Below the pieces are notes generated by a model. That model searched no databases. It worked only from the letters and a program-made list of their open reading frames with translations, and was not told the DNA's origin. A stretch of DNA of 64,000 nucleotides from Picochlorum sp. SENEW3 (taxonomy: Eukaryota). This document shows positions 2,569 to 57,400 of this stretch, one piece after another (positions within the stretch are counted from its first letter, which is position 1; every line of letters begins with the position of its first letter). A program made the position numbers and the translations under genes. The stretch spans positions 248,001 to 312,000 of the forward strand of contig CP120456.1 of assembly GCA_034226945.1 (NCBI GenBank). Direction: 5' to 3'.

Positions 2569-3819
2569 TTACACTCGAAACTGAGACTGGTAAAAATCAA
2601 TCAACGCTTTATTAAATTCTATCGGACACTCCTCCATAGGAATATGGCCACAATTATCAAATACTTTACTCTCCGTCACACATCCACTGCGCTCTTCCAA
2701 TATCTCCACTAAACATTTCCCAGAAGGTGTCAAAGGATCTGTCTCCCCTAGAGCAACAAGAATAGGCTGCTGCACCTTTGAGTAATCATACTGCATCGGT
2801 ATAGTAAACGAGCGCAGATTTAACAATGCCCCCATATCCCAATTGGCAGTTTTTAACGGAAGAAAATACCCGTCGATTGCTTCCTGCAGTAACATTTCCT
2901 CACTCAGATTGCTCTCATCCAATTCTCCATATCGCGCCGATGTGGCAGGATGTGGCCTGTATCCCAGGCCATTTTCCAATATAGAATTCTTTTGCTTTGC
3001 AATCATTCTCCGCACGAAACGCAGACCAGGTTCATCCATACTCATTATTGCTCGGGACAACACTATTCTTAGTTGTGTCCCAAAAGTTGCCCTGTTTTGA
3101 AAACTATACTCTTTTCTCGACGGCAATGCTGGAGCAACAAACACCAGACCATCCACCAATGTTGGATCAATCTCAGAAAGAAACAATGCCGTCAATGCCC
3201 CCGCTGAATGGCCCACGAGAACGCATGTCTCCACTCCCACTCTCTCCAAAAATGCTCTAGCCAACCTTGCTGTCCCATCAATCTCGTACGGATTAAAAGG
3301 CAATTCACAACCATCCCCCCATTCTATGGGCCTATCACTGAGCCCAAAAGGCGGTCTATCAAAAGCAATCACACGGGCACCAGTAGCTTGAGCTATGTAC
3401 TCACAGGTACCTCTCCAAGAGAACAGACTTGCATTATACCCATGCAATTTCACAATCACTGGCAAAGAAGGATCCCAATTGTCAGGAATTACATCTCTAT
3501 AATGTATGCGGACACCGTATACTGTCTCAAAGCGACAGTCCCCACCATCCTCGACCAAACTCTCTGATGGAATGACTGGGTCACTGGGCACAAGACTAGC
3601 ATCCGACCCATTGAGGAAATCAGGCAGTATTGGAAGTACCAAATCCTGGACCCAAGGTAATGAATCTCTCCTTGTCTGTTCTAGGATGCGCTGAACTAGG
3701 TCAAATTCCTTCTCCCGCTTCGAGTGAACGACTACACCTGTGGTCCTAGGAGAAGGAGGAGACGTCAACAGAAGCCTCGGGTGATTTTGTTGACCCAAAC
3801 ATCGCCTCGACAATCTCAT
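2569..3819 (-). CDS. Alpha/beta hydrolase fold protein
   Basis: LHG oxyanion motif, DRPPFGLS, nucleophile elbow GHSAG, C-terminal CGHIPMEE histidine. Confidence 0.85.
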   Translation of the reverse strand: MRLSRRCLGQQNHPRLLLTSPPSPRTTGVVVHSKREKEFDLVQRILEQTRRDSLPWVQDLVLPILPDFLNGSDASLVPSDPVIPSESLVEDGGDCRFETVYGVRIHYRDVIPDNWDPSLPVIVKLHGYNASLFSWRGTCEYIAQATGARVIAFDRPPFGLSDRPIEWGDGCELPFNPYEIDGTARLARAFLERVGVETCVLVGHSAGALTALFLSEIDPTLVDGLVFVAPALPSRKEYSFQNRATFGTQLRIVLSRAIMSMDEPGLRFVRRMIAKQKNSILENGLGYRPHPATSARYGELDESNLSEEMLLQEAIDGYFLPLKTANWDMGALLNLRSFTIPMQYDYSKVQQPILVALGETDPLTPSGKCLVEILEERSGCVTESKVFDNCGHIPMEECPIEFNKALIDFYQSQFRV

Positions 3820-15158: not shown

Positions 15159-16120
15159 TTATTTTTTTAGTAAAGATTCCCTGAATGCTCGTAAACTGTC
15201 AGCAGAGGCCTGTTTCACTGATGAATAATGAGACGCAATTTCCTTCTCCACATCTTTTTCTGCACACAACAATATCATCATCTATTATGATTTTCGTCAG
15301 ATTCAATCGCAATAACAATAATACGCACCATGTGCCTCACCCCCCTGAGCTAGGACATCAACCATCTTTGAATCCACCACATCATCCCCTGACACCCCCA
15401 CCAAGGAATGCAATCTTTCTAATTTCTGCTCTACATCAGACCCTTTCTGCACTATATACGCAACATCCTCTTCTAATCGTGTCGTCGACCCCACCACATT
15501 CGGCACAGACTCCAACTCTGCCATCTTCTTCTTCACATCCTCCATCAATGCATCAAGAAAGGCAATCGTCGATCTAATATCCCTAGATTTTTGTTTATCA
15601 TTCGCAATATCCACCTGTAACGCCTTCAGCTCCTCATCCACCCGTTTCTCCTCTTCCTCATCCACCTGCACAGCGTCTTCAGATGCTGTCCCAGCAGAAC
15701 TCGCCAACAACCCAGGAGGCACTTTGAATATCTCCGCCAACGCGTACTCTTCAAACACCTTCATCCTCTTTTTAATTTCCATACGCAAATCCTGGTACAA
15801 CCCAGCCGTTCCCTGAAGAAGAACAGTCAACTGCTCAGGAGTCAGTTCCTCAGCAAGGTCTTGCCGAAGAGCGCCATCTAATTCTTCAAAGCCAGTCGCG
15901 CAGTGCAGCTCCACCTGCAATATGTATATATACATATTGAACAAATAATCACCATACTATCGATAAAATAGGAGAAGAACAGGAGTTCAAAGTCGTTGTC
16001 ATTCCAACCAACAGTCCAACGCACCGCATTGTACACATCGTCCACAAAGGCTGTCGGATCAACATTAAGATTTATTTCAGGCGTATTGGATGTGCCATCA
16101 TCACCATTCCCCTCCGCCAT
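15159..16120 (-). CDS. MIS12: Kinetochore protein Mis12, 3 exons
   Basis: PTAFVDDVYNA-V and FEEYALAEIFKVP motifs plus coiled coil; intron 16024-15915 and a second intron near 15328-15261 giving a stop at 15159. Confidence 0.75.
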
Positions 16121-16325
16121 GGTGATTTCAGAGTCAACCACAACAGGTCGCACGTTGTTTCTCCCTACAGAACCAACCCTTGACCTTTATATTGGAAGAT
16201 GCGCCAATGATAAGACACGGAAAGATTGTTGTAATTCAAACTACCCGTCGTGTGGTTGGAATTCAGGCCATATGGCCTGATTCGTGTTGACTGTTGTGAC
16301 CATGACTGATCGACTGCATGTATCC

Positions 16326-16343
16326 CACTTACAGAAAGGATGG
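16326..16343 (+). repeat. Left terminal inverted repeat
   Basis: CACTTACAGAAAGGATGG; imperfect similarity to the right end continues about 12 bp further. Confidence 0.93.
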
Positions 16344-17242
16344 CAGTCCCCTTGATTTTGGGTCGCTGATTTCGTCGCGCACAGGGCGTTATATATTCCC
16401 GCTCGTATATATTATTGATCAGTATTACAAATAGAGTATCTCGTGAAAATTTGACGCCAAATGGTTCGCGCAATCGGGAGTTCGCCTCTCGGAGGGATGT
16501 GCAGATGCGCTTGAAACTGAGCGTCTAAAAGGTGTGCTCTCGGCGCAACAACGCCGTTCCCAGGACACAATATCAACTTTTAAGTATAAATGCAACTTTT
16601 TAGAGCGGTGGGGATGTATGAAACGGTCGCAGTACGGAGGATCGAGTCTTGATCATTTGGGTCTCTTTAAGTGCCTGCAGCGGATTTGCCCCAAATTTTC
16701 GCAGCCGGATTGTATTTAATATATCTAATTACGACAGATCGTTGCTCGCCCCCTCCGGGGCTGCTCGATTTTTTAATTCTTTTTTACACGATACTTTACA
16801 ATTCGATTGATTCATTGCTTTTCCACCAATGATCACCCCTTGTTGTGCCACTGTAGGCACTGGGGCGACCATTGGGGAAAAACCGTTAACCGTCTGTTGC
16901 CAGACGGCGAGTCCTCTCCATGCCACGTCTATTCACACCTGCACCACACATACTTGTCAGTTCTTACCTTTATTAATTGTTTGGCGACGTGATTGGAGGG
17001 ACTCTATACCTGCAGGCACATATACAAGGGTGGTCGTTAGTGATGGAAGGTCGTTGGTCACGCTGCGAGCGAGCCGCTCTGCTACGAATTTGGAACTTAC
17101 ATGAGAGTAAATTGTTCATTTATTGATATTGTATCATTCTGAGGCTGTATGGGCAGTGCTAAATATTTGCTTGGAAAAAACTATACCCGTCCAACCCAAC
17201 CGCCCGGCTCACTTGTGCATCTCCAGGGTGCCATGATGTGGG

Positions 17243-18464
17243 TCAATTCTCTTTGTCTTGTGCATCCTCGAGAGGCCTCCGTCGCCTGGATGTCCCTGTG
17301 ATGTATGTTTTAGCGTATTCGTTGCCGTAATCCTGCGTTCGTCGCTGCTTCACACCACGCTTTGCCCCTGGACGTCTGCTCTTCAGTTGCTCCACCTCCT
17401 TCTGGAGTTCGGCCATCTGTTTCTTGAGGATATCCCTTTCTGTCTTCGCATCCTCGTATAATTTGTCTTTCTTTTCCATTGATCGCTTTAGCTCATTGTA
17501 CTTTTCCTGGACATGTTTGACACTGTCCAGTGCTTGCTTGTGTATTTGTTCAGACATGAGAGCTTTAGCCTTCCCGTCGAATTCAGGATGTTCTTCTTTG
17601 ACTTTGTGCAGATCGTCGACGATGAGCGAATTTATCTCATTTCCAGAATTTTTCGTGGCCCCTGTAAAGATGAAGGAATACTTGTCCCGAGAATACCATG
17701 CAGGAGCTTTTGTAACACGAAGGGTCTCAGATGCTGCAAGTTCTCTTGGGTGGAAAACCTCTTGTCGCCTTCTGCCGCATGGTTCAGTCCATCTAGATAC
17801 TCTCCAATGCAATCGATAAGATATCTCCCAAATTGAAGGTACCAGTGACGATCTGCATCCATGTTTTTTCGGACACCGTCTCTGACATGTCTGTTGTGAT
17901 TATTCCGGTGATTTGGCTTCAGGTATGCCATGAGTTTATCCCCTGTGTATGATGCCGAAACCTTGGCCAGTTCTCCACATTCTAGCATGACTTTTTCTTT
18001 GCATACTTCAAAAGGAGTTCATGCGCTATGGGCATGCCTTTTTTCTGTGGCATGTATGCTTGGCATTGTTCAAAGTCACCATTGACAGGAGCCCTGGCCC
18101 AGTACTTCATGCAGGCCTCGCGGGCGTGCTTCTGTATATGCTTGTCCTCAACAAACAGAGACTCCGAGTTGTCATCGATTGAAATCTCGCTACTCTCGTC
18201 AATATCTACGGGAGAAGAGTTGGCAACTTCACCAGGAGGGTCTGCCTCGCACCAGTGTAAAAGATGTGTGACGTCGGGTTTCAGACAATGTGGGCTAACT
18301 CGTACTCCAAAATGCTCTATAATGATATCATTTCTAATGCCCTCTCGCTCTCTGAATGCAGTTGTCTGCTCATAGAGTTCATCGTCAGTCAACCCTGCTT
18401 CGGTGGCCTGGAGTTCCAAGCACGGCCCTTCCCCGGATTTATGCTTTATTCGTACTCTAGGCAT
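17243..18464 (-). pseudogene. Transposon accessory gene (about 407 aa if two -1 breaks are repaired), C-terminal coiled coil
   Basis: Three overlapping ORFs (18521-17982, 17988-17632, 17812-17243), each offset by -1; first ATG at 18464 (MPRVRIKH); lies inside the TIRs. Confidence 0.6.
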
Positions 18465-18664
18465 AAGTTTTCGAACACAATGTGCATTATACGACTGCAA
18501 AGACTGACTGTCAGCGTGCAATTGATAGACAATTGAAAGTCAGATTTTGAATTTCAAATTTTTGGCTTGCGAACAATTGCGACGGACGAGGGGCTCATAT
18601 GCTCTAAATTTTACTCTCACGATTACAAATCGTAATATAGTATATACATTTATGATATACCACA

Positions 18665-21600
18665 ATGGACGGTGTTGAAACGCAACGAAACCCCGAGCAA
18701 GGATCTCAAAGGTCAAAACGGAGGAGGGTAGCACGCAAGAAAATAACAGAGCTATGGAATGACTTTTACCAAGCGTGTCTTCGTCTCAAAGCCCCATATG
18801 GACCCATGGTAGACTCGTTGCATGCAGAAAGCGAGCAGAGACATTGCAGGGTATACTGTCCATACGGGGAGACGTGTGGATATTCTGGGAAGCCACTGTG
18901 CTTCGAAAATATGCTGTTCATGGACGTCACCGGAGATGTAGACAGGAGAAAAGTGCTTGATCACGTGCGTAACAAACATCCACATATTGCAGCGAGGTTT
19001 GGTGTGGAGAAGAAAGGGGAGGGCCACCCAAGGAGTCTTGAAGATGATGCCATAGTCCAACTAGATCCACATGTGTCCACTACTCTCCTCCCTTATGACC
19101 GAGACGAAGTTCTAACCATTCGCTCCTGTGAAGATTCTGATGAAGCAGTGGAATCATCCGATGAGGGCAGCGTGTGCACCGAGGTGAGGAGACACATGTC
19201 ATGCTTCCTGATTCTGGTTCTTGTTGTTCTGAAGAGTGAAAGCTATCTTCCTGCAGGACCTTGAGGACAGCGACGCTTCGAGTGATGAGCATGAGCCAAA
19301 TGTTGAGAATGCACCTGGTGAACGCTTTCGGTGCACTCAGGGGTCGCATTTCCAAACCTTTCTAATGGCAATGTTGGGTAAGGAACGTGGTGATGGGCTG
19401 GATCAGCCACAAGAAGATGAAGACGAGGAAGACGAGGCACCCTGCACTTTGCTTCAGCTCACATCTGCGCTCCTCGAAATAGAACTAAAGCATGCTGTAT
19501 CAAAAGAGCTCATGCAGGATATCTTGAGCGTAGTTCGGATGGGGAGGAGCAACCGTGACAGGATGATCATTCCACCATCCATCCACCTTCTGAGGAAGGC
19601 CATGGATGTTCCAGACCTTCAGGCTGTCGAATACCATAAGTGTCCCTGCGGATACATCTACAATAATGTCGTCCCGTTCAAAGATAGGGACATGGGTGAA
19701 GAATGTGGAGCAGGGTGTGGTAGGAAGAGGTTCACGGCAGACAGGGGTGGGAGCCCAAGACCCATGCAGCACTTTTATTACTTTGGGGTCCGAGACTGTA
19801 TGCAGAGTCTGTTCGCTTCGCGCAAATTTCGAGAATCAAGAAACAGAAGCATCGAAAGCGGTCGCGCAGGAAACACGGTGTACACATCCGAGTGGTTCAA
19901 ATGGATCAAGGAGAGGGAAAGCACAGCAGGCGGCGACACGACTAGTATCTGGTCGATCGGCGTGGATGGATCCCAGCCTTTTGGAAGGAAAGCACATTCT
20001 TGTACTCTGATTGTATTAAAGTGTGAAGATATGGTCCCTGAAGGCCGATATCTCAGCTGCAACACCAGATTATTGGGAATTATCCCAGGCCCAAAAGAAC
20101 CCAAAAACCTCAACCCCTTCTTATGTTTTATTGGTGAAGAGTTTGAGCGCCTCCGCTCATCTCCTATGGAATATCAATATGATGGAGTGGACGAAGATGG
20201 TCATGTGGTGAGACATTCTGGAGTTCATCGACCCATACTGGGATTCATTCATGCAGATGCTAAGGCCAGAGAAAAATCCACATGTGTGCTCCGGGGAACG
20301 CCATCAAAGGGTGCTACTTTTGCTGGCAGCGGGCCTCAGAAGCCATAACTAGCAGAAACGGCAAATCATACAAGAGAAGACTACTCACAGGCTACGAGGA
20401 GGAGGATCCTGTCACACATATCAATGGAATCACCAAGGAAGAGTTCCAGTTGTCCCGCTGTGACGATGATGCAATTCAGCAGCAGTCCGTGATTGGACAC
20501 GCTGACCTGGAAGATATATTGAATATTATGAAAACTGTGATGCCCCATGGCATATACGACGGATCGAGCACGCAAGAATGGCAGGATCGGCTTGGGATTC
20601 ATGACTATGCAAAAGTGTTTCATGCCGTGCCTACGTTGCACGTCAAGCACGGGATACCAGCTCCTCTATACCATCTGATTCTCTTAGGCATAACGAAAAA
20701 CTTTATCAAATACTTGTGGGATGGCCACGGCAACAAGAAAACCAGTGATCCCGATAGCAGGAGTATGAGAGTCTACAGCAAGAAGACCGTCAAGAAATTG
20801 GAGAGAGGAATTACTCTGAACAACTCGTTCAATCGTCCATACTCGCCATTAGAGCACTGCTACTCTTGGATTTGCGAAGAAGTCAAAGTTTTTGTAGAAG
20901 TACATTCATGTGCCCTGTTCAACGAGGAGGTGACCGGTGTTTCTGTGCTCACACCCAAGGCCATGGAAGCTTGGGCACATTTGAGGCAGTTTGTCATGCA
21001 TCACCTGAGCCACGCTGAAGCCGCCCGGCTCGAGCCATCTCAAGCCCTCTGGCATCTACACCAGTTCTCAAGGATATGTCAGGAAGAGAAGGCATACGAA
21101 TTGCTGACGCCCAACCTCCATACAGCCAACTGCCTCCTGCATCACCAGGAGGCCTTCGTGGGCCCACTGCACCAGTTGTCAGAGCTGTGGGTTGAACGGG
21201 CTATGCGGGCCGTCTCCTCGACGAGTTGTATTAATACGCCTGAGGCAACATTAGCAAAACGGTATCTTATCAGATCGGCATTGGAGAAAGCCAAGCACAA
21301 GATTGGGTCAGCCGACCAGAGTGCCATCCCAGTGTATGCCCCGAAGCAACACCGAAAGGCTGCGGGCACCATGTACGACGCCCATCCAAGCACCACGTAT
21401 GCTCTTCAAGGGAAAGGAGTAGAGCGGAGTACGACGAAATGCATCGAGCTAGAGATGCATCGAAGCAGCAGAGGGATAAGCTGAGGGAGTCCATCGAGAA
21501 GAAGAAGTTGAACCTCATCAGAGAGTTTCACACAAAGCACCAGGACGAGAGACCGAGGGAGCCGCAGAGAGATATCAAATTGTACAGTCATTTTTCTTGC

Positions 21601-22080
21601 AACGTCTTGGTAGATGGCAAAGGCTGTTGTGTGAAAACATTCTATGACAGGCGTGATACGAAGAGGCGGTCACACTTTGTCTTGCTGAGGGACAAGGATT
21701 CTGAGGCTCACCATGTTGGGGTGGTGTATGAATTTGTCCGCGTATTCAGTCCCCGGAATCCAGATGAAGTGGAACGATACGCGATTTGCGGGATATATGA
21801 GACAGAAAAAATGGATTACCATGGAACCACTGTGTACATGGTGAAGGAGTTCACAGGAGAGAGGCTGTGGAGGCATGACGAACGTGTGTTCAGCGTGCCG
21901 ATCGACGATATCGTCTGCCAAGTTTCTAGTTTTCAAATGTCAAAAGATGGTTGGGAGGGAGAATGGCCCCACTACAAGCTTGTGGAGGACGGCCACAAGA
22001 AAGAAATGGACAAAATGCTTGCCTTCTTCCCAACCCGAGGTTCCACCTTCGCAGCAGCGGACAGTATCGATATCGAATGA
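18665..22080 (+). pseudogene. Tnp2/Transposase_21-type DDE transposase (about 1,114 aa reconstructed; one intron, two -1 breaks)
   Basis: Phase-0 intron 19184-19256 joins exon 1 to the core; motifs YHKCPC..CGAGC, SIGVDGSQPF (D 19965), GIIPGPKEPKNLNPFL, HAD (D 20256), GCYFC, YHLILLG, PNLH, GPL..ELWVER (E 21194). Confidence 0.88.
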
Positions 22081-22379
22081 CAATAAACGTGTAAAGTATA
22101 AAAATTATCCAGGTAACAGCAGTGAATTGAGGCTACTGTGGAAGATCTGGTGCCTTGTGATCGACACCAAAAGTTCCTTAATTAGTACCATGGGCGGTCG
22201 ACCTGACTTCTCAAAATTTTCACACAAGCCATTTTACACAGGGCCCCATAACTTTTCGAATATCGCACCAAATTTCCCCATTTTTGTTTCAATAGACATA
22301 TTTTCTTACCCTCGTTTCGATGGCGTCGTCGAAATAATAAAATACGCCCCTCAGGAAAATTTGGGATTTAAGGAGGCCA

Positions 22380-22397
22380 CCATCCTTTCTGTAAGTG
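22380..22397 (-). repeat. Right terminal inverted repeat
   Basis: CCATCCTTTCTGTAAGTG is the exact reverse complement of 16326-16343. Confidence 0.93.
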
Positions 22398-22519
22398 TCC
22401 GGTCAACGGATATCTTTGATGGGCGTATCACAATGTATGTTTTATGTGGCATGATAAGGAGATATAGCAGGGCATCGTGACTATTCGGTGTGATAAAAAC
22501 AAGATAAAAATATATTGAA

Positions 22520-25500
22520 ATGAATGGGACATATTCTTTGCCCCCTCCTGAAGCGTGGGCATCGGATGGCCTTCATGGTGGTGGACGTCACATGGTCACT
22601 GTCCATTCCACCGTTGCTGGGAACGATTCTTCAGTTTTGGGAAGCGGAAGTTTCGATGTAGCCAATGATGCGTGGAAGCATTGTAAAGATGTGTCTCGAG
22701 ATGATGCTCGGCCACCTGATGTGTATGAATTATTGTCTCATAGTGTGGGAGAAACGCAGTATGCGTTTCCTCCGAAAGGGGTATGTGTGCTATGGTTCTT
22801 ATTTTGTATAGATGTTCGTAATTAATGGGGAGAATATGTGTGTTGCAGTGGCCTGCGCAGGTCCGCATGGTGTCTCCCATGGTAAATGAAATGCCAAAAA
22901 TGGTCATGGAGCGATATTCTGCGTGTCAGACTGTGGCGTTTTGCGGTGTATTTCCTGAGATTAAGCGAGCATGGGCTTCTGTTGATAATACCTTGTTTTT
23001 GTGGAGATATGATCGATGGCAGGACGTGCCAATTGAGTATCACATTGGTGATCAACCGATTGTTGCTGCTGGGATACTTGTGCCTAAAGCAAACGTGTTT
23101 CAGGCAGCTGTGCAGCATGTGTTGGTGCTGTGTACGACAACAGAAATATGCTTTATTGGTGTGTGTCATGAAGGGAACGATTTCGATGAGGTGACATTGC
23201 AACGATTGCCCCAGTATACAGTGTCGACTGACAATGTGTCCATGATCTCAGTGGCATCGACACAGGATGGGCGAGTGTTTCTTGGGGGGTCTGATGGAAA
23301 TGTGTATGAAATTGTTTATGCTGCAAAGGATACCTGGAGGACAAAGAGATGTGTGAAAGTGTGTCATACGAGGGGTATCAAGGCATACTTGCCATCATTT
23401 ATTCCTTCTAGTTTGCTTGGTTCAGTGCAGCCTATTGTTCAGATTGTTGTCGATGATGAGAGGCATATATTGTATACGAGATCGCAAAGTTCAGTTATAC
23501 ATGTGTTTGATTTAGGAGAGCAAGGGAAAGATGCGCCTTCAAAGGTGGCTGAAACTGTGGATTTTGCAGTGGATGCATCGCGGGCGTTGGGGGGTAGAGA
23601 AGTGTTTGGGCGTGGGGCTGGTGATAAGAAAGGAGGGAGGATTGTGTATATGGCGCCTGTGTCTACGAAGAGTAGTAGGAGGATTCAGTTGTTGACTGTT
23701 ACGGCTGATGGACGGCGGGTGTATTGGTCTGTCATGTCTTCTAGATCATCTGCGTCTCGTCCGGATCGTCTCAAGGCTGAGATTGCCAGGAGAGCAGTTC
23801 CTATTCCTACTGGAGGCAGGTCATATAGTAGCATGGGAAGATCGTTGGAAGTTCTTGCTGCGTGTGCTGTGTCTGATACATTGATTTTAGCAGAGTCTAA
23901 TGCCAGCGAGGGGAGGACATCGCTGTTTTTAATCACTAGAGATTCAACCATTCCTCCAGTTGGGACGGCGACTGGGGCTCTTTGCACGGTTCCAGGACTA
24001 CGAGAATCTGTTTCGCAATTGGAATTCCCTTTGCCGGGTGAAGCATGCGTCATTAGGGATATTCCAAGGGAGTCTGGCAAGGTGGTTGGAATGAATCATC
24101 CAGAATATGCAGTTTCTCAGAGGTTTGCAGTAGCGACCACTGCAGGGGTTGCAGAGGTAGAAATGCTGAGTCCTACTGATACGTTATCTCAGATTCTTGT
24201 AGAAGGAGACAAAGACGCCCTTGAAATGTTCTTCTCGTCGTATGGTGCAGTAGAAGCAGCTGCCATGTGCATCCATCTGGCATGTGGATCGTCATCATCG
24301 TCCAAATCTGTCTCTGGACTTGCAGAAGCTGCTCTTGATGATCCTCGATTATGCGGCCAACCAGAGATTGCACCTGCGCAGCAAAGTGATGGTACAAGAG
24401 GGGAAGAGCCAGCGGCACATCTTCCAAGTGGATTTGATATGGGCGCTGTTGTTCCCATTGCAGAGCCAGAGTGGTCTGCAGCCCACAAAGGGCTCTGTCT
24501 CGTCGTCTCTAGATTATTGCGTGGCGTGTGGGATGATCCGATGTTTAAATATTCTTCGTCTGCCCCAGGTTTATTGTCATGCACCATCAGTTTGGACGAA
24601 TTGGAGTCTATGTGTGAGACATTGCGAGATTTGGCCGAGTTTTTGTCCAGATACATTCATAGAAGGAAGAGCGGTCGCTCCAATGGCCTGGCCGAATATA
24701 TTAATGAGGCTCCAATCAACAAGAGACAAAAGCTAGAGGATGCTATTCGAGCTGAATTGAAGAGGACGGAGCAAGTGAAAGCTCTTGTTTCCAGGGTTGC
24801 AGATGGGTGCTTCTTGTTGATGGTCCTGTCAACCCATAATATTTCTCGTCTCGCAGCTCGAATGGAAAGTGGGGCGCGTCGCATTCTCAGATCCTTGCGG
24901 TTCAGGGATTGGATGTCACAGGAAGAGGGAGACATGGCAGCTTCACAATTGATTGCAGCCCTCATCTCAGAGCATCTGACAGACGCAGGGGAATTCTCCA
25001 GTGAGCTTGCTGTGACATTGCAGAGAGGATGTCCTTCATATTTCAAAGATGACGATCGCAAGTATTATGATGCTCGTAGTCTTTTGCGAAAAGCAGAAGG
25101 TGCAAACTCTCCTGTCGACAGAGAGAACATTATCAAAGAGGCCGTTGCACTCTTGATGCATGTTCCTCTATCCTCCGACTTGGCACAAGTTATACCGCAA
25201 TTAGCAATGCTAAGGGCGTTTGATTATATTGTTGAGCTAGCGGTCAAGGTATGTTGATCTATGTATGCATATATCCATCGATTCCACGATGTCCTCACAT
25301 GAGTTCCTCTGCCTTCTGCAGAAAGCAAGTGCTGTGGACCCCTCAAACCTAGCATTAGAGCAAGACCCCTCCGTGTCTCAACCGGCAAAGGCGAAAAGAT
25401 TGGAATCTTGTTATGTACATCTGTGCGACCTTATGAGAGTTTTGAAGGACACCTCAGGAAAAAAAGCCCCAGCATCCTTGGAAACTTTTGAGAAGAGTCT

Positions 25501-26776
25501 GAAAAGAGAAGAGAAGGCTGCACTTGCGTCGGTTCTAATTCGCCACACGGCAGCATCTGAGGATCCAATATTGCACGAAAGTGTATACGAAACTCTGATA
25601 CAGATAAATTGCATACAGGATCTACTTGGCATGGGAGGAGAGACGCTTGAAAACTACCTTTTCCAAAGCAGTGGGCTGACATCAGCAATGACAGGGCTCC
25701 CTGCAGAGCCATTGACGGCAGAACAGGTGCTACATGCAGAGGTTCTTGCAAAATATTATGTTAAAGTGAAAGAATATGCGGCAGCAGCAGGTGTTTATGA
25801 GCATCTAGCATTCCAAGTTGCAGATGTTATTGAGCCGCCTAGACCAACCTTGGAAAAGCGTGTCGAATACTTGGAATCTGCAGTTCTCCAAGCACGGTCT
25901 TGCGGTGACTCTGGCCTGGTTGATAGGTTAGCTACGAAGACTGAGCTCGGGCATATACAAATTAAGATTGAAAGTATGCTGAGAAGTAAGGGACTCTTGG
26001 GTCAAGATTCCGGGGAGGACTTGCACAAGGTACCGCGGACGCTGTTGTCCTTGGAAGAACTTTATAATGACATTGCTCGCAAACATAACCTTTGGAGAGA
26101 GTGCTTGGAACTAATCAATATTGCCTCGTTCAATGATACTGCCTATGTGAGGCAGCTCTGGGATCTGTACATGGAGCATGAATGGATGGAAGTATGGGGA
26201 AGGAGACCGGAAGAGGAACAGAGTTCTTTAGATGCCTTGGATGCCATGTGCTCAGCTGTGTCTTCATTAGGAAGATCTTTCTATCCAAATGAAAACAGCC
26301 TACCAATGGCATCGATTTTGTGTCGATTTGAGCAAGCAGCAGCTGGTCAGTGGCCAATTGATTCTGGGATCGCTCCTTCCGCAGGACCAAGCATCGTCCG
26401 TCAAAATCTTCTAAATCTCTGCTGTGACTCTTATGAAAATGCTATAAAATCTTACGATTCACTCATGACTGTGAGGAGCAGTGGACCCAATGGAGCTGAG
26501 TTACACAATCCTGATTTCAGGTTTAGAGTCTTATGTTCGATCAAAGATTTGGTTGATGATGCCTTGCAAGGTGGTTTGGATCAGTTCAGTAACATCGGTA
26601 GCCATTTGCATACTAAGCGAAGGCTTTTGGGAATCCTAGCTTCAGCATGCGAATCTTACGCTGCTGAGTCTAGACAGCTAGGACTGGTAGCAGGTGAGCA
26701 ACTTGGAAAAGAATTTGACACAACATCTGAGAAAATTGAAGCAAAGCTACGCAGTATCTCGTCCACCATCATTTGA
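22520..26776 (+). CDS. NUP155: Nucleoporin Nup155/Nup170, 3 exons
   Basis: GVFPEIKRAWASVDNTLFLWRY, GRVFLGGSDGNVYEIVY, YGAVEAAAMC, CPSYF and TLEKRVEYL motifs; introns near 22781-22860 and 25249-25321. Confidence 0.92.
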
Positions 26777-35834: not shown

Positions 35835-37545
35835 CTAGAAGACAAGCTGATCTGGACTCTCAATAATCTGCTTCAATGTCTGCAAAAATTCAGCAGCATG
35901 GGCACCGTACACGATTCTGTGATCGGCGGTGATATTGACAGTCATTTGCTTTTCAATTCCCATTCTTCCATTGGCATCCACGGACACAACTGGCTTGGAG
36001 CCACCAACGGCCAGAATAGCAGCAGTTCCTGGTGGCAAGATGGCATCAAAGTTGTCAACTCCAAACATTCCCAAGTTGGAGATTGTGAATGTACCTGTGG
36101 TGAATTCATCTGGAGCAAGCTGCTTGGCACGAGCACGCTTGACGAGGTCTGCCCAGTCTTTGCTCATGCTGTAAATGTCGGTTTCATTTGCATTCTTCAA
36201 TACTGGTGTGATCAGCCCTCCATCAGGCATTGCAACTGCCATTGCAATGTTGATATTCTCGCTGTAGGTGATGCCAGATCCATCTGGAGTGCAAGAGGCG
36301 TACAAAAGTGGATGAGATTCAAGAGCATTTCCACATGCCTTTGCAAGAAGGGCAGTCATGGTGACACCCTTTGGCTTCAATTTACGGTACAATGTATCAA
36401 GCTTGTCAGTTGAGATTGTCATAGACACTCTAAATTCTGGCACAGCGAGAGACTCAATCATGTTGCGGCTCACAGCCTGCTGCAGGGATGTGAATGGAAC
36501 TGTTGTTCCCTTCAAATCAGAAACGCTTGTGGCTTCTGGTGCTGCCACTGGAGCTGGAGCAGCTGGAGCAGCGGCTGCTGGGGCTGGAGTGGCAGCGGCT
36601 GCTGGAGCTGGGGCTGGAGCGCCTCCTTTGCCTGCATTTTCGACATCTGATGCTGTAATTCTTCCATTTGGTCCAGATCCTGCAATAGTGGCCAAATCAA
36701 CACCAAGCTTCTGAGCAAGCTTCTTGGCATATGGCGTGGCAATGATTCTGCCATCAGCTCTCTTCTGAGGAACTGGAGCTGGAGCAGCTGGGGCAGCTGG
36801 GGCTGGGGCAGCTGGGGCAGCCGGAGCAGGAGCAGCCGCAGCAGGAGCGGCTGGAGCTGGAGCCTCAGCAGCTGGAGCAGGAGCCTCTGGCTCAGCAGCT
36901 GGAGCTGCAGCTGGGGCTGGTGCAGCACCTATAGGCACACATATCACGCACTCGATTAGATCAGATCCATCGGTCGCGCTCTTATTGAACCAACAACATT
37001 CCTATAACACAAACATACCTCCACTTCCCTTTGACTTGGCTTCGGCCAAATCAGCCTCTGATTCCGCAATGTATGCAATCGCACTTCCCACATTTGCCAT
37101 TTCTCCCTCCTGGATCACAACAGAACCCAAGATTCCATCGCTGAAGGACTCCACATCCATATCAGCCTTATCTGCACGCAACGAAAACAACCAGCATACG
37201 TCAACCATCGAATCTTCGATCGGCTATCAACCGCATTATAAATCCGTCATATGGATTGATCGAACCCGTCTGCATCAACAATGCATTCCATCGACGTTAC
37301 GAATTGATCACACGCATCGCACCTGACTCGACGACGACGAGAGCCTCTCCTCTGGTCACCTTGTCTCCAGGAGATTTAAGCCAGCTTACAATCTTACCCT
37401 CTGTCATCGTAGATGACAATGCTGGCATGAAAACTTCCTTGACGGCATTCATAGGGGTGACCGGTCTTCTGCCTGACACCTTGGTGCCTCTGCTCTGTGG
37501 CACAAGGGAAGCCCCGATCTTGGATGTCATACTAGATGTGAACAT
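35835..37545 (-). CDS. DLA2: Plastid pyruvate dehydrogenase E2 (dihydrolipoamide acetyltransferase), 3 exons
   Basis: MPALSSTMTEGKIVSW lipoyl domain with VES-DKADMDVE, E3-binding ATPYAKKLA, Pro/Ala linkers and catalytic TADHRIVYG. Confidence 0.93.
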
Positions 37546-50466: not shown

Positions 50467-50951
50467 GATGATTCGGGCTCAAGAACTCTTATGCTGTCTC
50501 CTATTGTTCCATACTTGTCTCTGGCGTGCAATTGTGTACAGTCATGATGCCGATCCGACTATTGCTTGTAACAATTGTTCTGTGATTGTTCAGTCATGCG
50601 TTGTTTCATTGAGTGCCATCGGTCACAATCAATGAATCGTCCTTTCCTTACGATTGATACCCTTCTTAAAAAGATCAATAAAACTGGAAGATCTCAGCAC
50701 AGGGCCATGACGTAAATCATAAGCAGCCTCCTCGACGTGGCAATTAATTCTTGTTCATACTTACTATGTTACATGTACACTAGAAATACAAAAAGCAGAA
50801 GATTTGTGATCGACTGTAGTACTGCTAGCAGAATGGGAATCGAAAACCCACTTGTGCGGAAGCAGCGCAGGGTTTGAGGGAGGTAGAATTGCCAAAATTG
50901 GTGACATGATATCAGAGAAAATGAATTTCTAAGACAGAATAAAGTATCACG

Positions 50952-53900
50952 ATGCCTCAGTTGCGGTTGTATAACAGGCGGTGGTATACAGCCACTGATA
51001 CTCAGCCACTGCTTGCCTCATTCATGATGGTATCCCATCTCATGTTGCTCATATCAACGGCCATCATAGCAGGGCTTTTAGCAAACGCACGATATTATTG
51101 TGATGAGAGAGTCAAATTGAGTGTAGATATCATCGGAGTCTTGGTGCTATTCGTATTACTGGTTACAAATGATTGTTTGATTATTGGGTTTGGATTTCGT
51201 GGAGGGCCATTTGAGGAGAAGAAACGAAAGCCCGTGATCATTTTTCTGTATGTTGAGAGTGCGTTGATTATTGCTCACTTTGCATTCACGATATATGGCA
51301 CGTACTTGGCGTATTCACCTAGCATATCTGATGGATGTTGGAATACCAATCCTTGTGCTGGAATCTCTGGAACAGTGCCAGCTGTGTGCCTACCAGATCA
51401 ATACAATTTGATTGGGCCAGTCACGTTGAGTGAGAATTGTACTTGGATCACAAATAATTATAAAGTTGTCGACAAATGCCTGTCGAATTGGATTGGTCTG
51501 GGAGTTGGGGTACGTACTGTTGATGATTGCATTTTGCTGTCTGAGGGGCATTCTGATTCCATGCGTGACAATCCGCTTCTATTGCATTATGCAGTGGCTC
51601 AATCAGGCATATGATCCAAACTTAACACCGCCGATCAATAAGAATATCACGCCGAATTGTCAGATGGAAGCATCCTTGGATCCACGACTCAACCTTCAAT
51701 CTGATCCAAATTCTCAGATTGAATACGTGTCACGAATCCCAGAGGCAAGCAGTTACCTTGTAGATAATTCTATGATACAGTTGATGAAGTCTGTGGGGCT
51801 TTTGAATCAGTCATATCCATGGGTCACTGCGCAGACATTTCTAGTTAATCCCAGACCTCTTTTCTTGAGTCCATGGGGAGAGTGTCCACAGTTGAGTCAA
51901 TGTATAAGAGCACTGGATAATGATTGTGGCGAGTGGAATATTCTTCTGAATCTTCCGGATGGACGTGATGAGAAGTGGCTGTTTCGAACTATTGTGTTTT
52001 TGTCATGGTTTAGTCTTGGTGTTACATTGATCTTGGACATACTCTTTTTCAATGCAAATCCAGATTATACGTCTTCTGAAAGTTGGATGAAGTCGCTAGA
52101 AGGGGTGGGATCGCTATTCGGTTTCCGCCAGACTCTTGTCAATTCGATAACAGAAGAAGGGTTCTCTGCATCAGAGGAGTTTGGTGTGTTGCTCGCTCGC
52201 CTGTTTGGAGGCATCGATATGGATCTGACAGACAAGATTTTAGGCATTTACTTGGCTGGTGAACGGACTCGATGGCGAAGGCTACGGCATGTCAACGCCA
52301 TCTTGTCTATTCATGGATATAGTCAGAAGCCTTATAAACGAGGCTGTATGAGCAGGCTGTGTGGTGGTATTGGTATCGATGGGGCTATGATTTTTGAGTT
52401 TCCCGACAGGACCGCAGCCGTGAGTGATGGAATTCAAAATGCAAAGCAAACTATTGTATCCATGCTTCCGAGTCCATTCTTGGCAAAAGTATCAGATTCG
52501 CCAAATTCTCAGGAACCGTCATCCGAAGGGCCCATGACTCCACCAGAAACTATTACGATTAGTCACAGCATTGTCCGGCTTGAAACTTCTGAAACTTTGA
52601 TGAGGAGCAGTACAGGAAGTAGAATTAAGAATCGAGAATCCGTTGCAAGCGTTGTGGGAGATAACAAGAACATTCGAGTGATGCTCCCAGTTGACATCAC
52701 CCCTCTCAGGCTGCAGCCTGATATTGATTCTCGCACGGCTGCTGCCCTCTATTTGGATACCTGCAATGGATATGTGGAATCGTCCGTTTTGGAAGAAGCT
52801 TTACATTATTCCTGGTTTGCGAAAGCTGCGTACGGTCTTCAAGATCGTCGCTGGAAAGCCGCTGCGTCAGGAAAGGTCCTCGATGATTGTGGAGATTACT
52901 GTCTGAGCAAGCAATGCTGCATGCCATTCAGTAAGCCTTTGGGCCTGAAACATCGATTCCGCAAGCGGAACTTTGATGCCATCATAAATTTCACGGGAAT
53001 ACCCCCCGAAGACTTTTTATATGTCTCGTATGCAAGCACAAGCTTTGGAGTCCTCCCATACCTCATCATGCTGGACAGAAAGCACCGCAAGGTGATTTTG
53101 TCTGTACGAGGGACAGTTGGCATCAACGATCTGATGACGGACCTGCTCAGCCAGCCAGTAGGAATCAATAGCTTTTTACCACCATCACTGCTCAACCAAG
53201 CTCCCAAAAAGCCTGATGGGACGCCAATTAAATTGTTTGGTCATGCAGGAATCATATCAAGTGCCAAGGCAATCTTGCAGAGCCTTGGGGACAATAAAAT
53301 TTTTACAACTTTGCGCGAGCAGCAGAATATTGACTTGTCAGATATCAGGCGTCAAAACACTATGCGTAGTAGAAAGTTCACGGAAAATCTTAGCAATTTA
53401 TCAAAGGACAATGAGGTCGAATTTCCTCTAGAGCGAGCAGCATCGGCCGTGTATGAAGCAACCAAACTCAACGACTGGGGCATCGTGGTCACCGGTCATT
53501 CTTTAGGCGCTGCAGTCGCATCTTTGGTGTCCATGAGCTTGAAAGAAACGTATCCGTCGTTGAAATGCTTTGCCTTCAACCCACCTGGAGGCCTAGTCAG
53601 CCCAGAGCTTTCCACCTTGGCCAGAGATTTCTGCACCTCCATCGTGGTAGGATACGATATGATCTCTCGACTTGGTATTTTGGGGGTGAAGAACTTGATT
53701 GACGACATTGTCCTGTCCTTGTGCCGCTGCAAGCGTCCAAAGCTGAAGATTCTGTGGGACATTATGCTAGGCCTTCGCAAAGACCCTCAGACTGCTCCCA
53801 AGACATATTGCTCCATCGATGACATGGATGACGAGATCAAGAATATTTTACAACAGTATATGCAGTACGCAGAGCTCCATGCGGAAGACCTGGACACGCA

Positions 53901-54117
53901 GATGCTGTGCCCTGCGGGTACCACTGTGTTTCTGAGACCATACGTAATGGATGACGCCTCAGAAGAATGGGACGCTGTATATGCAGATCCCACAGATATT
54001 GTCAGCGAAGGAATCATCGTTTCACGTTACTCCATGAAGCATCATCAAATCTCAGAGATGCAAAACGCCATCTCCTGTGCAATGTCAGATGCCCATCACG
54101 CCCTCGAGAATGTGTAA
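50952..54117 (+). CDS. sn1-diacylglycerol lipase-like (lipase class 3), copy 1
   Basis: N-terminal TM helices after LYNRRW, SVRGT, GHAGI, VTGHSLGAAVA, AFNPPGG, VGYDMISRL; intron 51510-51594. Confidence 0.88.
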
Positions 54118-54447
54118 TGGCAGCAGAGGCAATCATGCACACGGATCTTCATTGTAAGATCTTGCAAATGTTCGCCAATCAATTTTTCTGAATACCGATT
54201 TTAGAGGCTGTAACGTCACATTAGAATTTTACACATGTTGATAATTTTCTGAGGTCATCTCAGAAAGAGTTTTTCTGTAGTATTACAGCCTCGGAGCACA
54301 CAGGAGAGAAAGAGAGGCTTTTCCAGTCCTGACGAGCGAGAGTTCAGAATACCGACACAGACCCTGTCCAGCGAAGGTATATTTGAAGCTGAATACCTGA
54401 TACTGTTTTTTTTTGGTTTGCCATTGATATGTAAGTGATACAGCACC

Positions 54448-57400
54448 ATGCCTCAGTTGCGGTTGTATAACAGGCGGTGGTATACAACCACTGATACTCA
54501 GCCAGTCTTGGCAGCACTCATGCTCGTGCTCCACATTCTATTGCTCATTGCTACCGCCATCATAGCAGGGATTTTGGTGAATGCTCGGTATTATTGCGAA
54601 GACAACAATAAACTCAGTGCAGACCTCATTGGTGTCTTTGTCCTATTTGGATTGTTCTTGATAAATGATTGTGTGCTTATTTTCTTTGGATTACAAGGAG
54701 GTCCCTTTCAGGAGAGGAAAAGAAGGCCCGTTATTATAGCATTGTACATTGAGAATGCACTGATTGTCGCTCATCTCGGGTTCACAATATATGGAACATA
54801 TTTGGGATATGGAGATGGTTTTGCTGATGGTTGTTGGAACACCAACCCTTGTGCTGGCATCTCAGGGACCGAGTTAGCAATATGCCTGCCAGAACAATAC
54901 AATCTAGTTGGGCAGATTTCGTTGAGAGAAAACTGTACTTGGGTAACGAATAACTATAAACTTGTCAACAGGTGCCTCAATGCTTGGGTGGATCTTGGAA
55001 TTGGGGTATGTGATCTAGTGATGTAGTGGTATTGTGTGCTGTAGATGAAATGAATTGACTTGTCTGGCATATATTTAAATACAGTGGCTTAATCAAGCAT
55101 ATGATCCAAACCTCGCACCGCCTATAGATCGGAATACCACAGCAAATTGCCAGAGAGCAAAACTTGTGGGCCCAGGGTACAACTTTCAATTTGCTGATTT
55201 GAGTGCTCAGATCGATTTTGTTCCGCGTATTCCTGTTGCAGTCGCATATTTGGTGGATAATGCAATGATACAATTACTCAAGTATGTCGGTTACCTGAAT
55301 CAGTCGTATCCATGGGTCACAGCACAGAATCTGTACACGAACCCTCGGCCACTATCTATAACCCCATGGGGAAGCTGTCCACAATTGCGTGGATGTCGCA
55401 GGGCGCTTGATAGTGATTGTGGTGAATGGAATCTAATTCTGAGCCTTCCGGATGGACGTGATGAGAAGTGGCTTTTTCGAAGCATTGTTCTTGTATCATG
55501 GCTTAGCATTGCTCTCACTGTGATCCTGGACATTATCTTCTTCAATGCATATCCGGATTATTCCTCCTCTGAAAGCTGGATGAAGTGGTTAGAACGTATA
55601 TCTAAATTATTTGGTTTCCGTGAAACGCTAATGAACTCCATGACTGAAGAAGGGTTCACTGCAGCAGAAGAGTTTGGTGTCTTGCTTGCTCGTCTTTTTG
55701 GAGGGATTGACATGGACCTGACGGACAAACTTATAGGTGTCTATTTGGCGAGCGAACGTACGCAATGGAGGCGGCTAAGACATGTCAATGCAGCTTTGTC
55801 GACCCATGGATTCAGCCAGAAACCATTTAAACCAGGTTTTCTGAGCAGATTGTGTGGTGGTCTTGGTGTTGATGGCGATATGCATTCTGAACTCGCTACG
55901 CGACATACTGTACAATTGATTGAGAGTTCCGAAACGGACGACGAATCCCAGATTCCGAGTCCATTCGTGGCGAAAATATCAGAATCACAAAGTTCCCAGG
56001 GAACATCCTCTGACGCACCAGCAACTCAACCAGAAAATATTTCACTCAGTCGCAGCATTGTCCGGCTTGAAACATCACAAAGAATTGACACAGCGGATGA
56101 GCATGTGAAGAATCGAGAATCAGCTGCTGCAAGCGTCGTGGGAGATAGAAAGTGCATCCGAGTGATGATTCCAGTTGACATCACCCCTCTCAGGCTACAA
56201 CCTGATATTGATTCCCGCGCAGCTGCTGCCCTCTGTTTGGGTGCCTGTGATGGATATGTGAAGTCGACCGTTTTGGAAGAAGCTTTGCACTACTCATGGT
56301 TTGCAAAAGTTTCATATGGTCTGCGAGACCAACTATGGGAGGCTGCCAAAACAGACAAGGTCCTCGAGGACTGTGGAGATTATGTCCTGAGCAAGAAATG
56401 CTGCATGCCATTCAGCAAGCCTTTGGGCCTGAAACATCGATTCCGTAAGCGAAACTTTGATGCCATCATAAAGTTCACGGGAATACCCCCCGAAGACTTT
56501 TTATATGTCTCGTATGCAAGCACAAGCTTTGGGATCCTCCCATACCTCATCATGCTGGACAGGAAGCGGCGCAAGGTGATTTTGTCTGTACGAGGGACAG
56601 TCGGCATCAATGATCTGATGACAGACTTACTAAGTCAGCCAGTCGGGATTAATAACTTTTTGCCATCATCACTGCTCAACCAAGCTCCCAAAAATGTGGA
56701 TGGGACGGCAATAAAATTGTTTGGTCATGCAGGAATCATGTCGAGCGCCAAGGCCATCCTACAAAGCCTCGAAGACAACAACATATTCTGCAAGTTGGAA
56801 CAGCAAAACATCGATCTATCGGAGATAGAAAGGCAAAACACCATGCAGAGTCAACAATTCACAGACCACTTGAGCACATTATCACAGGACAGTGAAGTTG
56901 AGTTTTCCATGGAACGAGCAGCGTCTGCAGTGTATGAAGCAACCGAACTCAATGACTGGGGCATCATAGTCACTGGTCACTCTTTAGGCGCTGCAGTCGC
57001 ATCTGTGATATCCATGAGCCTGATAGATTCATATCCATCATTGAAATGCTTTGCCTTCAACCCACCTGGAGGCCTTGTCAGCCCAGAGCTTTCCACCTTG
57101 GCCAGAGATTTCGTCGCATCCATCGTAGTCGGCTATGATGCGATATCTAGACTGAGCATTTTGGGGGTAAAGAACTTGATTGACGACATTGTTCTGTCTC
57201 TTTGTCGCTGCAAGCGTCCAAAACTGAAAATCGTATGGGACCTTATACTGGGCCTTCGCAAAGACCCTCAGACTGCTCCTGAAACATACTGCTCCATCGA
57301 TGACATAGATGAAGAGGTGAAGGCTATCTTGCACAAGTACATGACACATGCACAGCTCCACACAGAAGACTTGGACACGCAGATGCTGTGCCCTGCAGGC

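Follow-up and report, generated by a model that had tools for sequence, protein, structure and literature searches.

The 64,000-nt stretch of Picochlorum sp. SENEW3 DNA analysed here (contig CP120456.1, positions 248,001 to 312,000; hereafter the window) carries at positions 16326-22397 what is very probably one member of a transposon family of the CMC (CACTA/EnSpm-Mirage-Chapaev) group, a cut-and-paste DNA element that is present in several copies and was mobile in the recent past. Without its target site duplications (TSDs) it measures 6072 bp, and with them 6078 bp. Its mobility is documented with unusual completeness: the terminal inverted repeats (TIRs) are perfect, there is a TSD, an empty site matches it, copies are several, and the genes are intact in the family consensus.

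The 18-bp TIR, CACTTACAGAAAGGATGG, begins with CACTT and is identical at 18 of 18 positions at the two ends of the element (16326-16343 on the plus strand and 22380-22397 on the minus strand). When the TIRs are lengthened to 28 nt (16326..16353 and 22370..22397, respectively) the complementarity is 86%. With up to three mismatches allowed, CACTTACAGAAAGGATGG was found at just those two sites in the window, compared to a chance expectation of 0.09; in the shuffle control two matches were reached in one of 100 shuffles. The trinucleotide TCC directly precedes the left TIR (16323..16325) and directly follows the right one (22398..22400).

Parts of the stretch were present in 20 public sequencing runs, and the contigs of four of them (X1, X5, X9 and X11) were aligned to positions 15400-23400. 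In X9, a marine metagenome, a 7126-nt contig joins 15959-16322 without a break to 22398-23400, with 28 differences in 1367 nt. One contig of X5 has the identical joint, 16322 to 22398. Three letters at this joint fit either side, i.e. the empty site has a single TCC, and the flanks in the empty-site contigs are about 98% identical to the window. The site is unoccupied in these related strains. The original prediction, made from the sequence alone, had described a complete 6.07-kb CACTA/EnSpm-type transposon with a perfect 18-bp TIR beginning with CACTT and a perfect 3-bp TSD, and had expected relatives to have an empty site with a single TCC. All of this was borne out, and the empty site itself was found in contigs of two metagenome runs.

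The site is occupied in X1 (organism A), where two flank contigs, 15400-16354 and 22370-23400, match the window with no differences and no gaps. The left contig enters the left TIR by 29 nt and the right one begins inside the right TIR at 22370, as assembly graphs usually do at the borders of repeats. The depth in X1 was 57.8-59.1 in the flank bins and 376.5-1047.7 in the element bins, a ratio of about 6 to 18 in summed contig depth, which is not a copy number. Peaks were observed in the left 1.5 kb and in the last 0.3 kb of the element. We read the depth only as a sign of several copies whose ends are more numerous than their middles. Three more contigs of X1 join position 16326 from unlike flanks and represent other insertion sites. 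Over 4264 listed bases, the window copy differs from the collapsed element contigs of X1 by five substitutions and four one-base gaps. Such a small number of differences within the same organism, together with the exact empty site in two runs, supports the recent insertion that had been proposed, and does so more strongly than the sequence alone could.

A few further joints deserve a mention as separate observations. Among the loose ends of X1, another copy appears to have TAA on either side (left consensus ...CTAA, right T+AAACACTC); the agreement of this consensus was only 0.61, and the two ends may come from different insertions. In X9 there is a weak joint from 17255 to 22254 (depth 2.1, side 26, with 40 foreign letters between), which might be an internal-deletion derivative and is too thin to count. 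X11 (organism B) has the element at about 96-99% identity, e.g. 3 differences in 350 nt and 17 in 646 nt. No contig of X11 matches either host flank (15400-16322 and 22401-23400) at 90% identity or more, though uncovered flanks do not show absence. The copies in organism B are no more than a hint of horizontal transfer between algal lineages, or else reflect contigs that are just missing or filtered.

Inside the TIRs, the element has subterminal regions with copies of the motif GRAAATTTGG. At up to one mismatch the motif occurs 11 times in the window, and five of these matches, including all three exact ones, are situated in the subterminal regions, a few hundred bases from the element ends. 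The left region (16445..16700) has matches at 16445-16454 (plus strand, one mismatch) and at 16691-16700 (minus strand, exact). The right region (22212..22364) has matches at 22212-22221 and 22268-22277 on the minus strand and at 22355-22364 on the plus strand. A protein of the element might bind at these copies; since the motif was picked after viewing the sequence, its enrichment is a lead and not a test. Among loose ends at 16326-16360 in runs X11 and X5 we also observed sister subfamilies with the termini CACTTACAGAAAATGTGG... and (C)ACTTACGGAAAATGTGAG.... Across the subfamilies only the first ~12 bases of the TIRs are common, and the related ends start with CACTTAC(A/G)GAAA.

The element has two genes arranged head to head. 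The transposase gene, on the plus strand, is one gene of about 1114 codons with a single intron, and is made of four open reading frames (ORFs) in frames 2, 0, 2 and 1. Exon 1 (18665..19183, 173 codons) has a Cys/His-rich segment, CRVYCPYGETCGY...DHVRNKHPH, which is presumed to be a DNA-binding zinc finger. The 73-nt intron (19184..19256) has GT..AG borders (GTGAGG...CCTGCAG) and shifts the frame by +1; a spliced relative, protein P0003, reads CTE directly followed by DLEDSD across the junction. Exon 2 (19257..22080, about 941 codons with the stop at its end) codes for the putative catalytic residues D at 19965-19967 (SIGVD), D at 20256-20258 (FIHAD) and E at 21194-21196 (LWVE). It also codes for the residues of a putative zinc site: C(2)C at 20312-20323, H at 21119-21121 and C at 21131-21133.

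Two more changes of frame occur in exon 2, after 20271 and 21446. Since relatives read straight through both of them, these changes are not introns: protein P0001 is uninterrupted there (...AKAREKIHMCAPGNAIKGCYFC... and ...STTKCIDARDAAKQQ...). Programmed frameshifting or short introns at 20271 and 21446 were considered and rejected, given that intact relatives and contigs are continuous with one extra base; for short introns, moreover, no GT..AG interval of plausible size fits.

The second gene (17243..18464, minus strand) is without introns in intact relatives, where it has about 410 codons. In the window it appears in three frames, 18464-17982, 17988-17632 and 17557-17243. Its relatives P0157-P0162 are uninterrupted proteins of 289-412 aa, four of which (P0157, P0158, P0159 and P0161) have 409-412 aa; their identity to P0157 is 44-83%, with a conserved central region. 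The two divergent start codons are separated by a 200-bp spacer (18465..18664), presumably a bidirectional promoter. Contigs of X1, X5 and X9 span both start codons; therefore, the head-to-head arrangement characterises the family. The proposal of a two-gene family is in line with the intact relatives found for both genes, some of them labelled jgi/Picre1.

Several observations weigh against the interpretation given above. Both genes are out of frame in the window as assembled, with two 1-bp deletions each. Even at E<=10, Pfam gave no transposase match for the ORFs of the window, and at E<=1 it gave none for the five closest database relatives. In the relatives, H(3)C is seen (H in 100 of 106 filled positions, then C in 94 of 103) where H(3-4)H is expected. 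Searches of Pfam, PDB and the ESM Atlas revealed no known accessory protein of a transposon that resembles the second protein. Mobility is read from sequence, copy number is read from summed contig depth only, and the public RNA runs contain just 6-11% of the sampled words.

The frame breaks matter most for the status of this particular copy. In the transposase gene the window is one base short after 20271 (A5, compared to A6 in relatives and in all four runs) and again at 21446 or 21447, compared to relatives and the contigs of the four runs. In the second gene it is one base short after 18009 (A4, compared to A5 in all four runs) and at 17702-17704. A fifth indel, at 16780, is non-coding, with one extra T in the window (T6, T5 elsewhere). 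The collapsed contigs of X1 have the extra base at four of the four coding breaks, and every X1 contig there is unlike the window. Hence, whichever status this copy has, the family consensus of organism A stays in frame across all four sites.

We consider it somewhat more likely than not that the frame breaks come from homopolymer lengths misjudged by the assembly within a repeat. This explanation is favoured because the indels sit in short runs of bases, are about as frequent as substitutions and are restricted to the repeat. Indels of this kind, near parity with substitutions and within repeats, are typical of an unpolished long-read consensus. The other explanation is that the window copy is a dead or non-autonomous relic with real mutations, movable at most by transposase supplied from other copies. 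Apart from the broken frames themselves, it is supported by the extra bases that relatives and the collapsed contigs of the four runs carry at 20271, 18009 and 21446/21447. It is also supported by private substitutions of the window at 16424, 16953 and 19933, which occur in no run and differ in 100% of the X1 depth. As contigs drop rare variants, a window variant missing from contigs does not have to be an error. On the other hand, five of the five indels fall in short runs (A5/A6, A4/A5, T6/T5, GG/GGG or A/AA, A/AA), four gaps against five substitutions is a high share of indels for natural decay, the unique flanks show no gaps in 1986 bases, and the TIRs and the TSD are perfect. Still, given the private substitutions and the loss of rare variants from contigs, we regard a decayed copy as a serious possibility, if one with less than an even chance. 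The suggestion of a possibly active element fits the family, which is intact and recently mobile in appearance; the window copy is not coding-intact as assembled.

We turn to the transposase itself. Three of the five closest database proteins are labelled jgi/Picre1, which we take to be the JGI code for Picochlorum renovo. No match to Transposase_21, DUF4218, DUF4216 or Transpos_assoc was detected by Pfam in the window ORFs or in these five relatives. A family profile run against a word-indexed protein library found eight proteins, and the weakest of them, P0008 (E 3e-4), has PF02992 (Transposase_21, Tnp2) and PF13960. Aligned with P0008 by hhalign, the family profile gave a probability of 98.0% and an E-value of 1.6e-13 over 439 columns, with the paired segments (family/P0008) SIGVDGSQPF/LNVDWFQPF, IIPGPKEP/IMPGPKEA, HADAKAREK/ACDIPASRK and WVER/AFER.

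An exhaustive profile search among cluster representatives produced 1773 matches at E<=1e-3, 484 at E<=1e-10 and 112 at E<=1e-30. For the best 148 relatives, Transposase_21 was the only recurrent Pfam family, detected at E<=1e-3 in 14 of them (12 of 67 plus 2 of 81), with four above the curated cut-off, and no other transposase family was detected. One of the 148 had a weak match to DUF4218 and two had unrelated extra domains. In the distant relative P0122, a papain-type peptidase and a LysM domain are predicted as fused parts, which probably reflects either a chimeric gene model or the capture of a host gene. Searches of metagenome contigs gave 73 loci, all distant (best-segment identity 20-45%), with no close relative among them, and searches of viral contigs gave no relative.

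All three putative D/D/E residues named in the original prediction are present in the window and are conserved in an alignment of 154 sequences, where they occupy 95 of 98, 114 of 117 and 104 of 109 filled positions. The two cysteines of the C(2)C motif occupy 110 of 117 and 115 of 116 filled positions. With regard to the H(3)C variant, the cysteine found at the place of the second histidine is plausibly a swap of one zinc ligand for another.

The fold was predicted for the relative P0001, which is 92% identical to the window over the compared part, and not for the broken window copy. The AlphaFold model, made with 101 aligned sequences, had a predicted local distance difference test score (pLDDT) of 85.7 and a predicted template modelling score of 0.88. 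In a Foldseek search with this model, 43 of the 43 matches at E<=1e-3 were RAG1 or RAG-like proteins, and Helicoverpa Transib came next. VIA-align gave Z-scores of 16.2 for RAG1 (459 residues aligned, root-mean-square deviation (rmsd) 5.9), 11.7 for BbRAGL, the amphioxus RAG-like protein, and 11.1 for HzTransib. Sequence identity to the RAG1-type structures is only 9-13%, and the transposase profile had no matches among PDB sequences.

Judged by remote homology and the predicted structure, the transposase is a divergent member of the Tnp2/CMC lineage with a RAG1-type core. The description of the protein as a Tnp2-type transposase is thus upheld by the profile alignment with P0008 and finds no support in direct Pfam matches of Transposase_21 to the window ORFs. 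The miss is a limit of one Pfam model and not a defining biological trait.

Past the catalytic core, the P0001 model has a β-rich C-terminal domain (residues ~677-874, approximately 21391..21990 of the window, plus strand), which is located outside the RAG1 match and has a predicted BAH-like fold. Residues 677-874 aligned by VIA-align to BAH domains with Z-scores of 8.2-10.0 over 103-130 residues: 10.0 for ORC1 (rmsd 4.1, 119 residues aligned), 9.0-9.5 for ZMET2, 9.3 for TNRC18, 8.4-8.9 for DNMT1 and 8.3 for MET1. The Foldseek match to the ORC1 BAH domain had an E-value of 0.11 with a probability of 0.93, the domain being seen within the whole-protein model. This domain was present in 72 of the 78 relatives that reach at least 200 residues past the catalytic E. 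Pfam BAH had no match in the window ORF (E<=10), in the five close relatives or in the best 148 relatives. A survey of transposons fused to chromatin domains gives most weight to Chromo and PHD and, in its accessible part, does not mention a BAH-transposase (bioRxiv 10.1101/2021.11.30.470311). A BAH-transposase fusion was not evident from the titles and abstracts among the literature matches listed.

A bolder reading would see here a large, nearly Pfam-invisible branch of CMC transposases with a RAG1 fold, in which a BAH-like chromatin reader within the protein steers insertion, in the present case to a shared divergent promoter region; a second bold reading would have the family moving horizontally between picoalgal lineages. 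We rate these ideas as speculative, with the odds well against them. If the former were true, the BAH-like domain within the transposase polypeptide would be analogous to the PHD finger of RAG2, on which RAG1 depends.

The product of the second gene appears from its sequence to be a family-specific coiled-coil protein. Its C-terminus is predicted to form a long helix or coiled coil (residues ~296-365) followed by a basic tail. Pfam searches with P0157-P0161 returned sub-threshold coiled-coil noise only and no Transposase_24 (PF03004), presumably the family of the TnpA-type accessory proteins. A profile of the second protein gave only coiled-coil noise against PDB sequences (E 0.03-0.57). The AlphaFold model had a pLDDT of 46, too poor for a fold search, and the best ESM Atlas score of 0.76 was below the level of a lead. 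By analogy with other two-protein CACTA elements, we infer that this protein may be a dimerising, end-binding accessory factor.

A published classification assigns to EnSpm the elements with CAC...GTG ends and a 3-bp TSD (PMC12730594). The present element has such ends, a TSD of this length and a transposase homologous to Tnp2-domain proteins, so it falls under the working definition of EnSpm, and the CMC-EnSpm assignment made at the outset is sustained. With the EnSpm/CACTA superfamily, of which maize En/Spm, Chlamydomonas Tcr3 and the EnSpm-Plavaka families of Auxenochlorella are examples, it has in common the CAC...GTG ends, the 3-bp TSD, a second protein encoded within the element, and motifs repeated near the termini. 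At the fifth base of the ends, plant elements have A or G (CACTA/CACTG) and this one has T (CACTT). EnSpm/CACTA elements have H(3-4)H, whereas here we see H(3)C as well as the predicted BAH-like C-terminal domain. Maize En/Spm makes alternatively spliced products from one transcript, while this element has two head-to-head genes. Therefore, with an accessory protein unlike Transposase_24, the element would seem to work as a two-protein CACTA element outside the maize En/Spm family proper.

The core fold of RAG1, ProtoRAG (BbRAGL) and Transib is shared in the predicted model, and so is the C(2)C motif. Transib and RAG have a 5-bp TSD. In contrast, the TSD here is 3 bp, and there is no gene for a RAG2-like partner, the second gene coding for a coiled-coil protein instead. 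The KDZ (Kyakuja-Dileera-Zisupton) group was rejected, as no KDZ-type Pfam family was found in the five close and 148 further relatives and the TSD is 3 bp long; that of Zisupton is 8 bp. The C(2)C zinc motif is common to CMCT and RAG1, and the H(3-4)H motif follows it in EnSpm, Mirage, Chapaev, Transib and RAG1 (PMC12730594). Plavaka, a fungal CMCT lineage, is related to EnSpm and has a TSD of 2-3 bp, but its termini are TGT..ACA (PlavakaA) or CATCA..TGATG (PlavakaB), compared to CACTT..AAGTG here (PMC12730594).

One could also argue that the family is a separate CMCT lineage outside EnSpm proper, of the same rank as Plavaka, ESTA or Lanisha (a GenBank record of the latter is named in PMC8245031), with the CAC ends and the 3-bp TSD being ancestral. 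Transposase_21 fails to detect the window protein, the five proteins closest to it and 134 of the best 148. The 1773 representatives counted at E<=1e-3 make for a large clade. The H(3)C variant, the conserved (predicted) BAH-like domain and a second protein unrelated to the TnpA-type Pfam families point the same way. Nevertheless, the hhalign match at 98% to a protein with PF02992 and PF13960 extends across the whole core, Tnp2 is the sole Pfam family recovered among the relatives, and the termini and the TSD fit the published EnSpm definition (PMC12730594). For these reasons we find a separate lineage unlikely. The opposite extreme, that there is no transposon and two host genes are bracketed by a chance inverted repeat, has nothing but the missing direct Pfam match in its favour, is already refuted by the empty site with its single TCC, conflicts as well with the 6-18-fold depth of the element over its flanks, the other flanks joined to the identical terminus, the 0.09 TIR matches expected by chance, and the Tnp2 homology and predicted RAG1/Transib-like fold of the protein, and can be dismissed.

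For a transposon of the CMC group, the following course of transposition may be proposed. The transposase would recognise the CACTTAC(A/G)GAAA termini, possibly with the second protein bound to the subterminal GRAAATTTGG-like motifs. Excision would be made by the D-D-E site, aided by the C(2)C...H(3)C zinc site, and reinsertion would proceed through a cut staggered by 3 bp. Tethering to chromatin may be the role of the BAH-like domain at the C-terminus.

In the host genome, the element is inserted between a Mis12-like kinetochore gene on the minus strand (15303-16120; PF05859, E 2.8e-12) and a Nup133/155-like nucleoporin gene on the plus strand (22825-26776; PF08801, E 4.3e-58). It is positioned in the upstream region common to both genes, about 205 bp from the start of the left ORF (16120) and about 425 bp from the start of the long right ORF (22825). 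The nucleoporin gene has a change of frame at 25241-25257, apparently an ordinary intron and so uninformative on the quality of the assembly. Elsewhere in the window we observed a tandem duplication at 50948-57097 with a unit of ~3.49 kb (six blocks of 115-300 nt, 71-82% identical, at a spacing of 3481-3496), probably two adjacent paralogous genes. Dense short repeats of the GCTGGAGC type, spaced by 9-24 nt, occur at 36517-36928, in the bin where the GC content of the window peaks (0.517); they probably represent a low-complexity coding stretch rich in Ala, Gly and Pro. The GC content of the window is 44-52%, and that of published Picochlorum genomes is 44-46.5% (PMC6141220). The GC content and the jgi/Picre1 labels agree with a host of the Picochlorum type.

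The family was also thought to be undescribed. We found no paper on CACTA/EnSpm elements in Picochlorum, in a search that left Repbase, Dfam and the supplements of papers outside its scope; to this extent the claim holds. Of the two text matches, one was to 'Cactaceae' and the other, PMC12907382, appeared in the search listing. The literature found on Picochlorum transposons comprised genome papers with totals only. For the nuclear genome of Picochlorum sp. SENEW3, assembled from Nanopore and Illumina reads, 0.35% of DNA transposons was reported (PMC11092101), and for P. costavermella, 61 genes in putative transposable elements (PMC6141220). Among other green algae, the EnSpm-type element Tcr3 is active in Chlamydomonas (PMC9940879), and the streamlined trebouxiophyte Auxenochlorella has 'EnSpm-Plavaka' families with insertions polymorphic between haplotypes (PMC12633428). 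Since active EnSpm-type elements have already been reported in streamlined trebouxiophytes and in Chlamydomonas, a recent insertion in so gene-dense a genome is less surprising than had been suggested. What does come as a modest surprise is a branch that is nearly invisible to Pfam, with the H(3)C variant and a predicted BAH-like tail.

Algae of the Picochlorum type have very compact genomes and are under development as production strains. For these algae, the family, which has perfect ends, genes intact in the consensus and a site that is occupied in some strains and empty in others, is likely a live source of insertional mutation and of variation between strains, and it is a candidate tool for transposon tagging. 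Because the transposase escapes Pfam, genes of the element get annotated as hypothetical host genes; their database relatives are indeed 'hypothetical protein' or unnamed entries. Finally, the combination of a RAG1-like fold with a BAH-like domain may offer a small, testable case of a cut-and-paste enzyme that reads chromatin.

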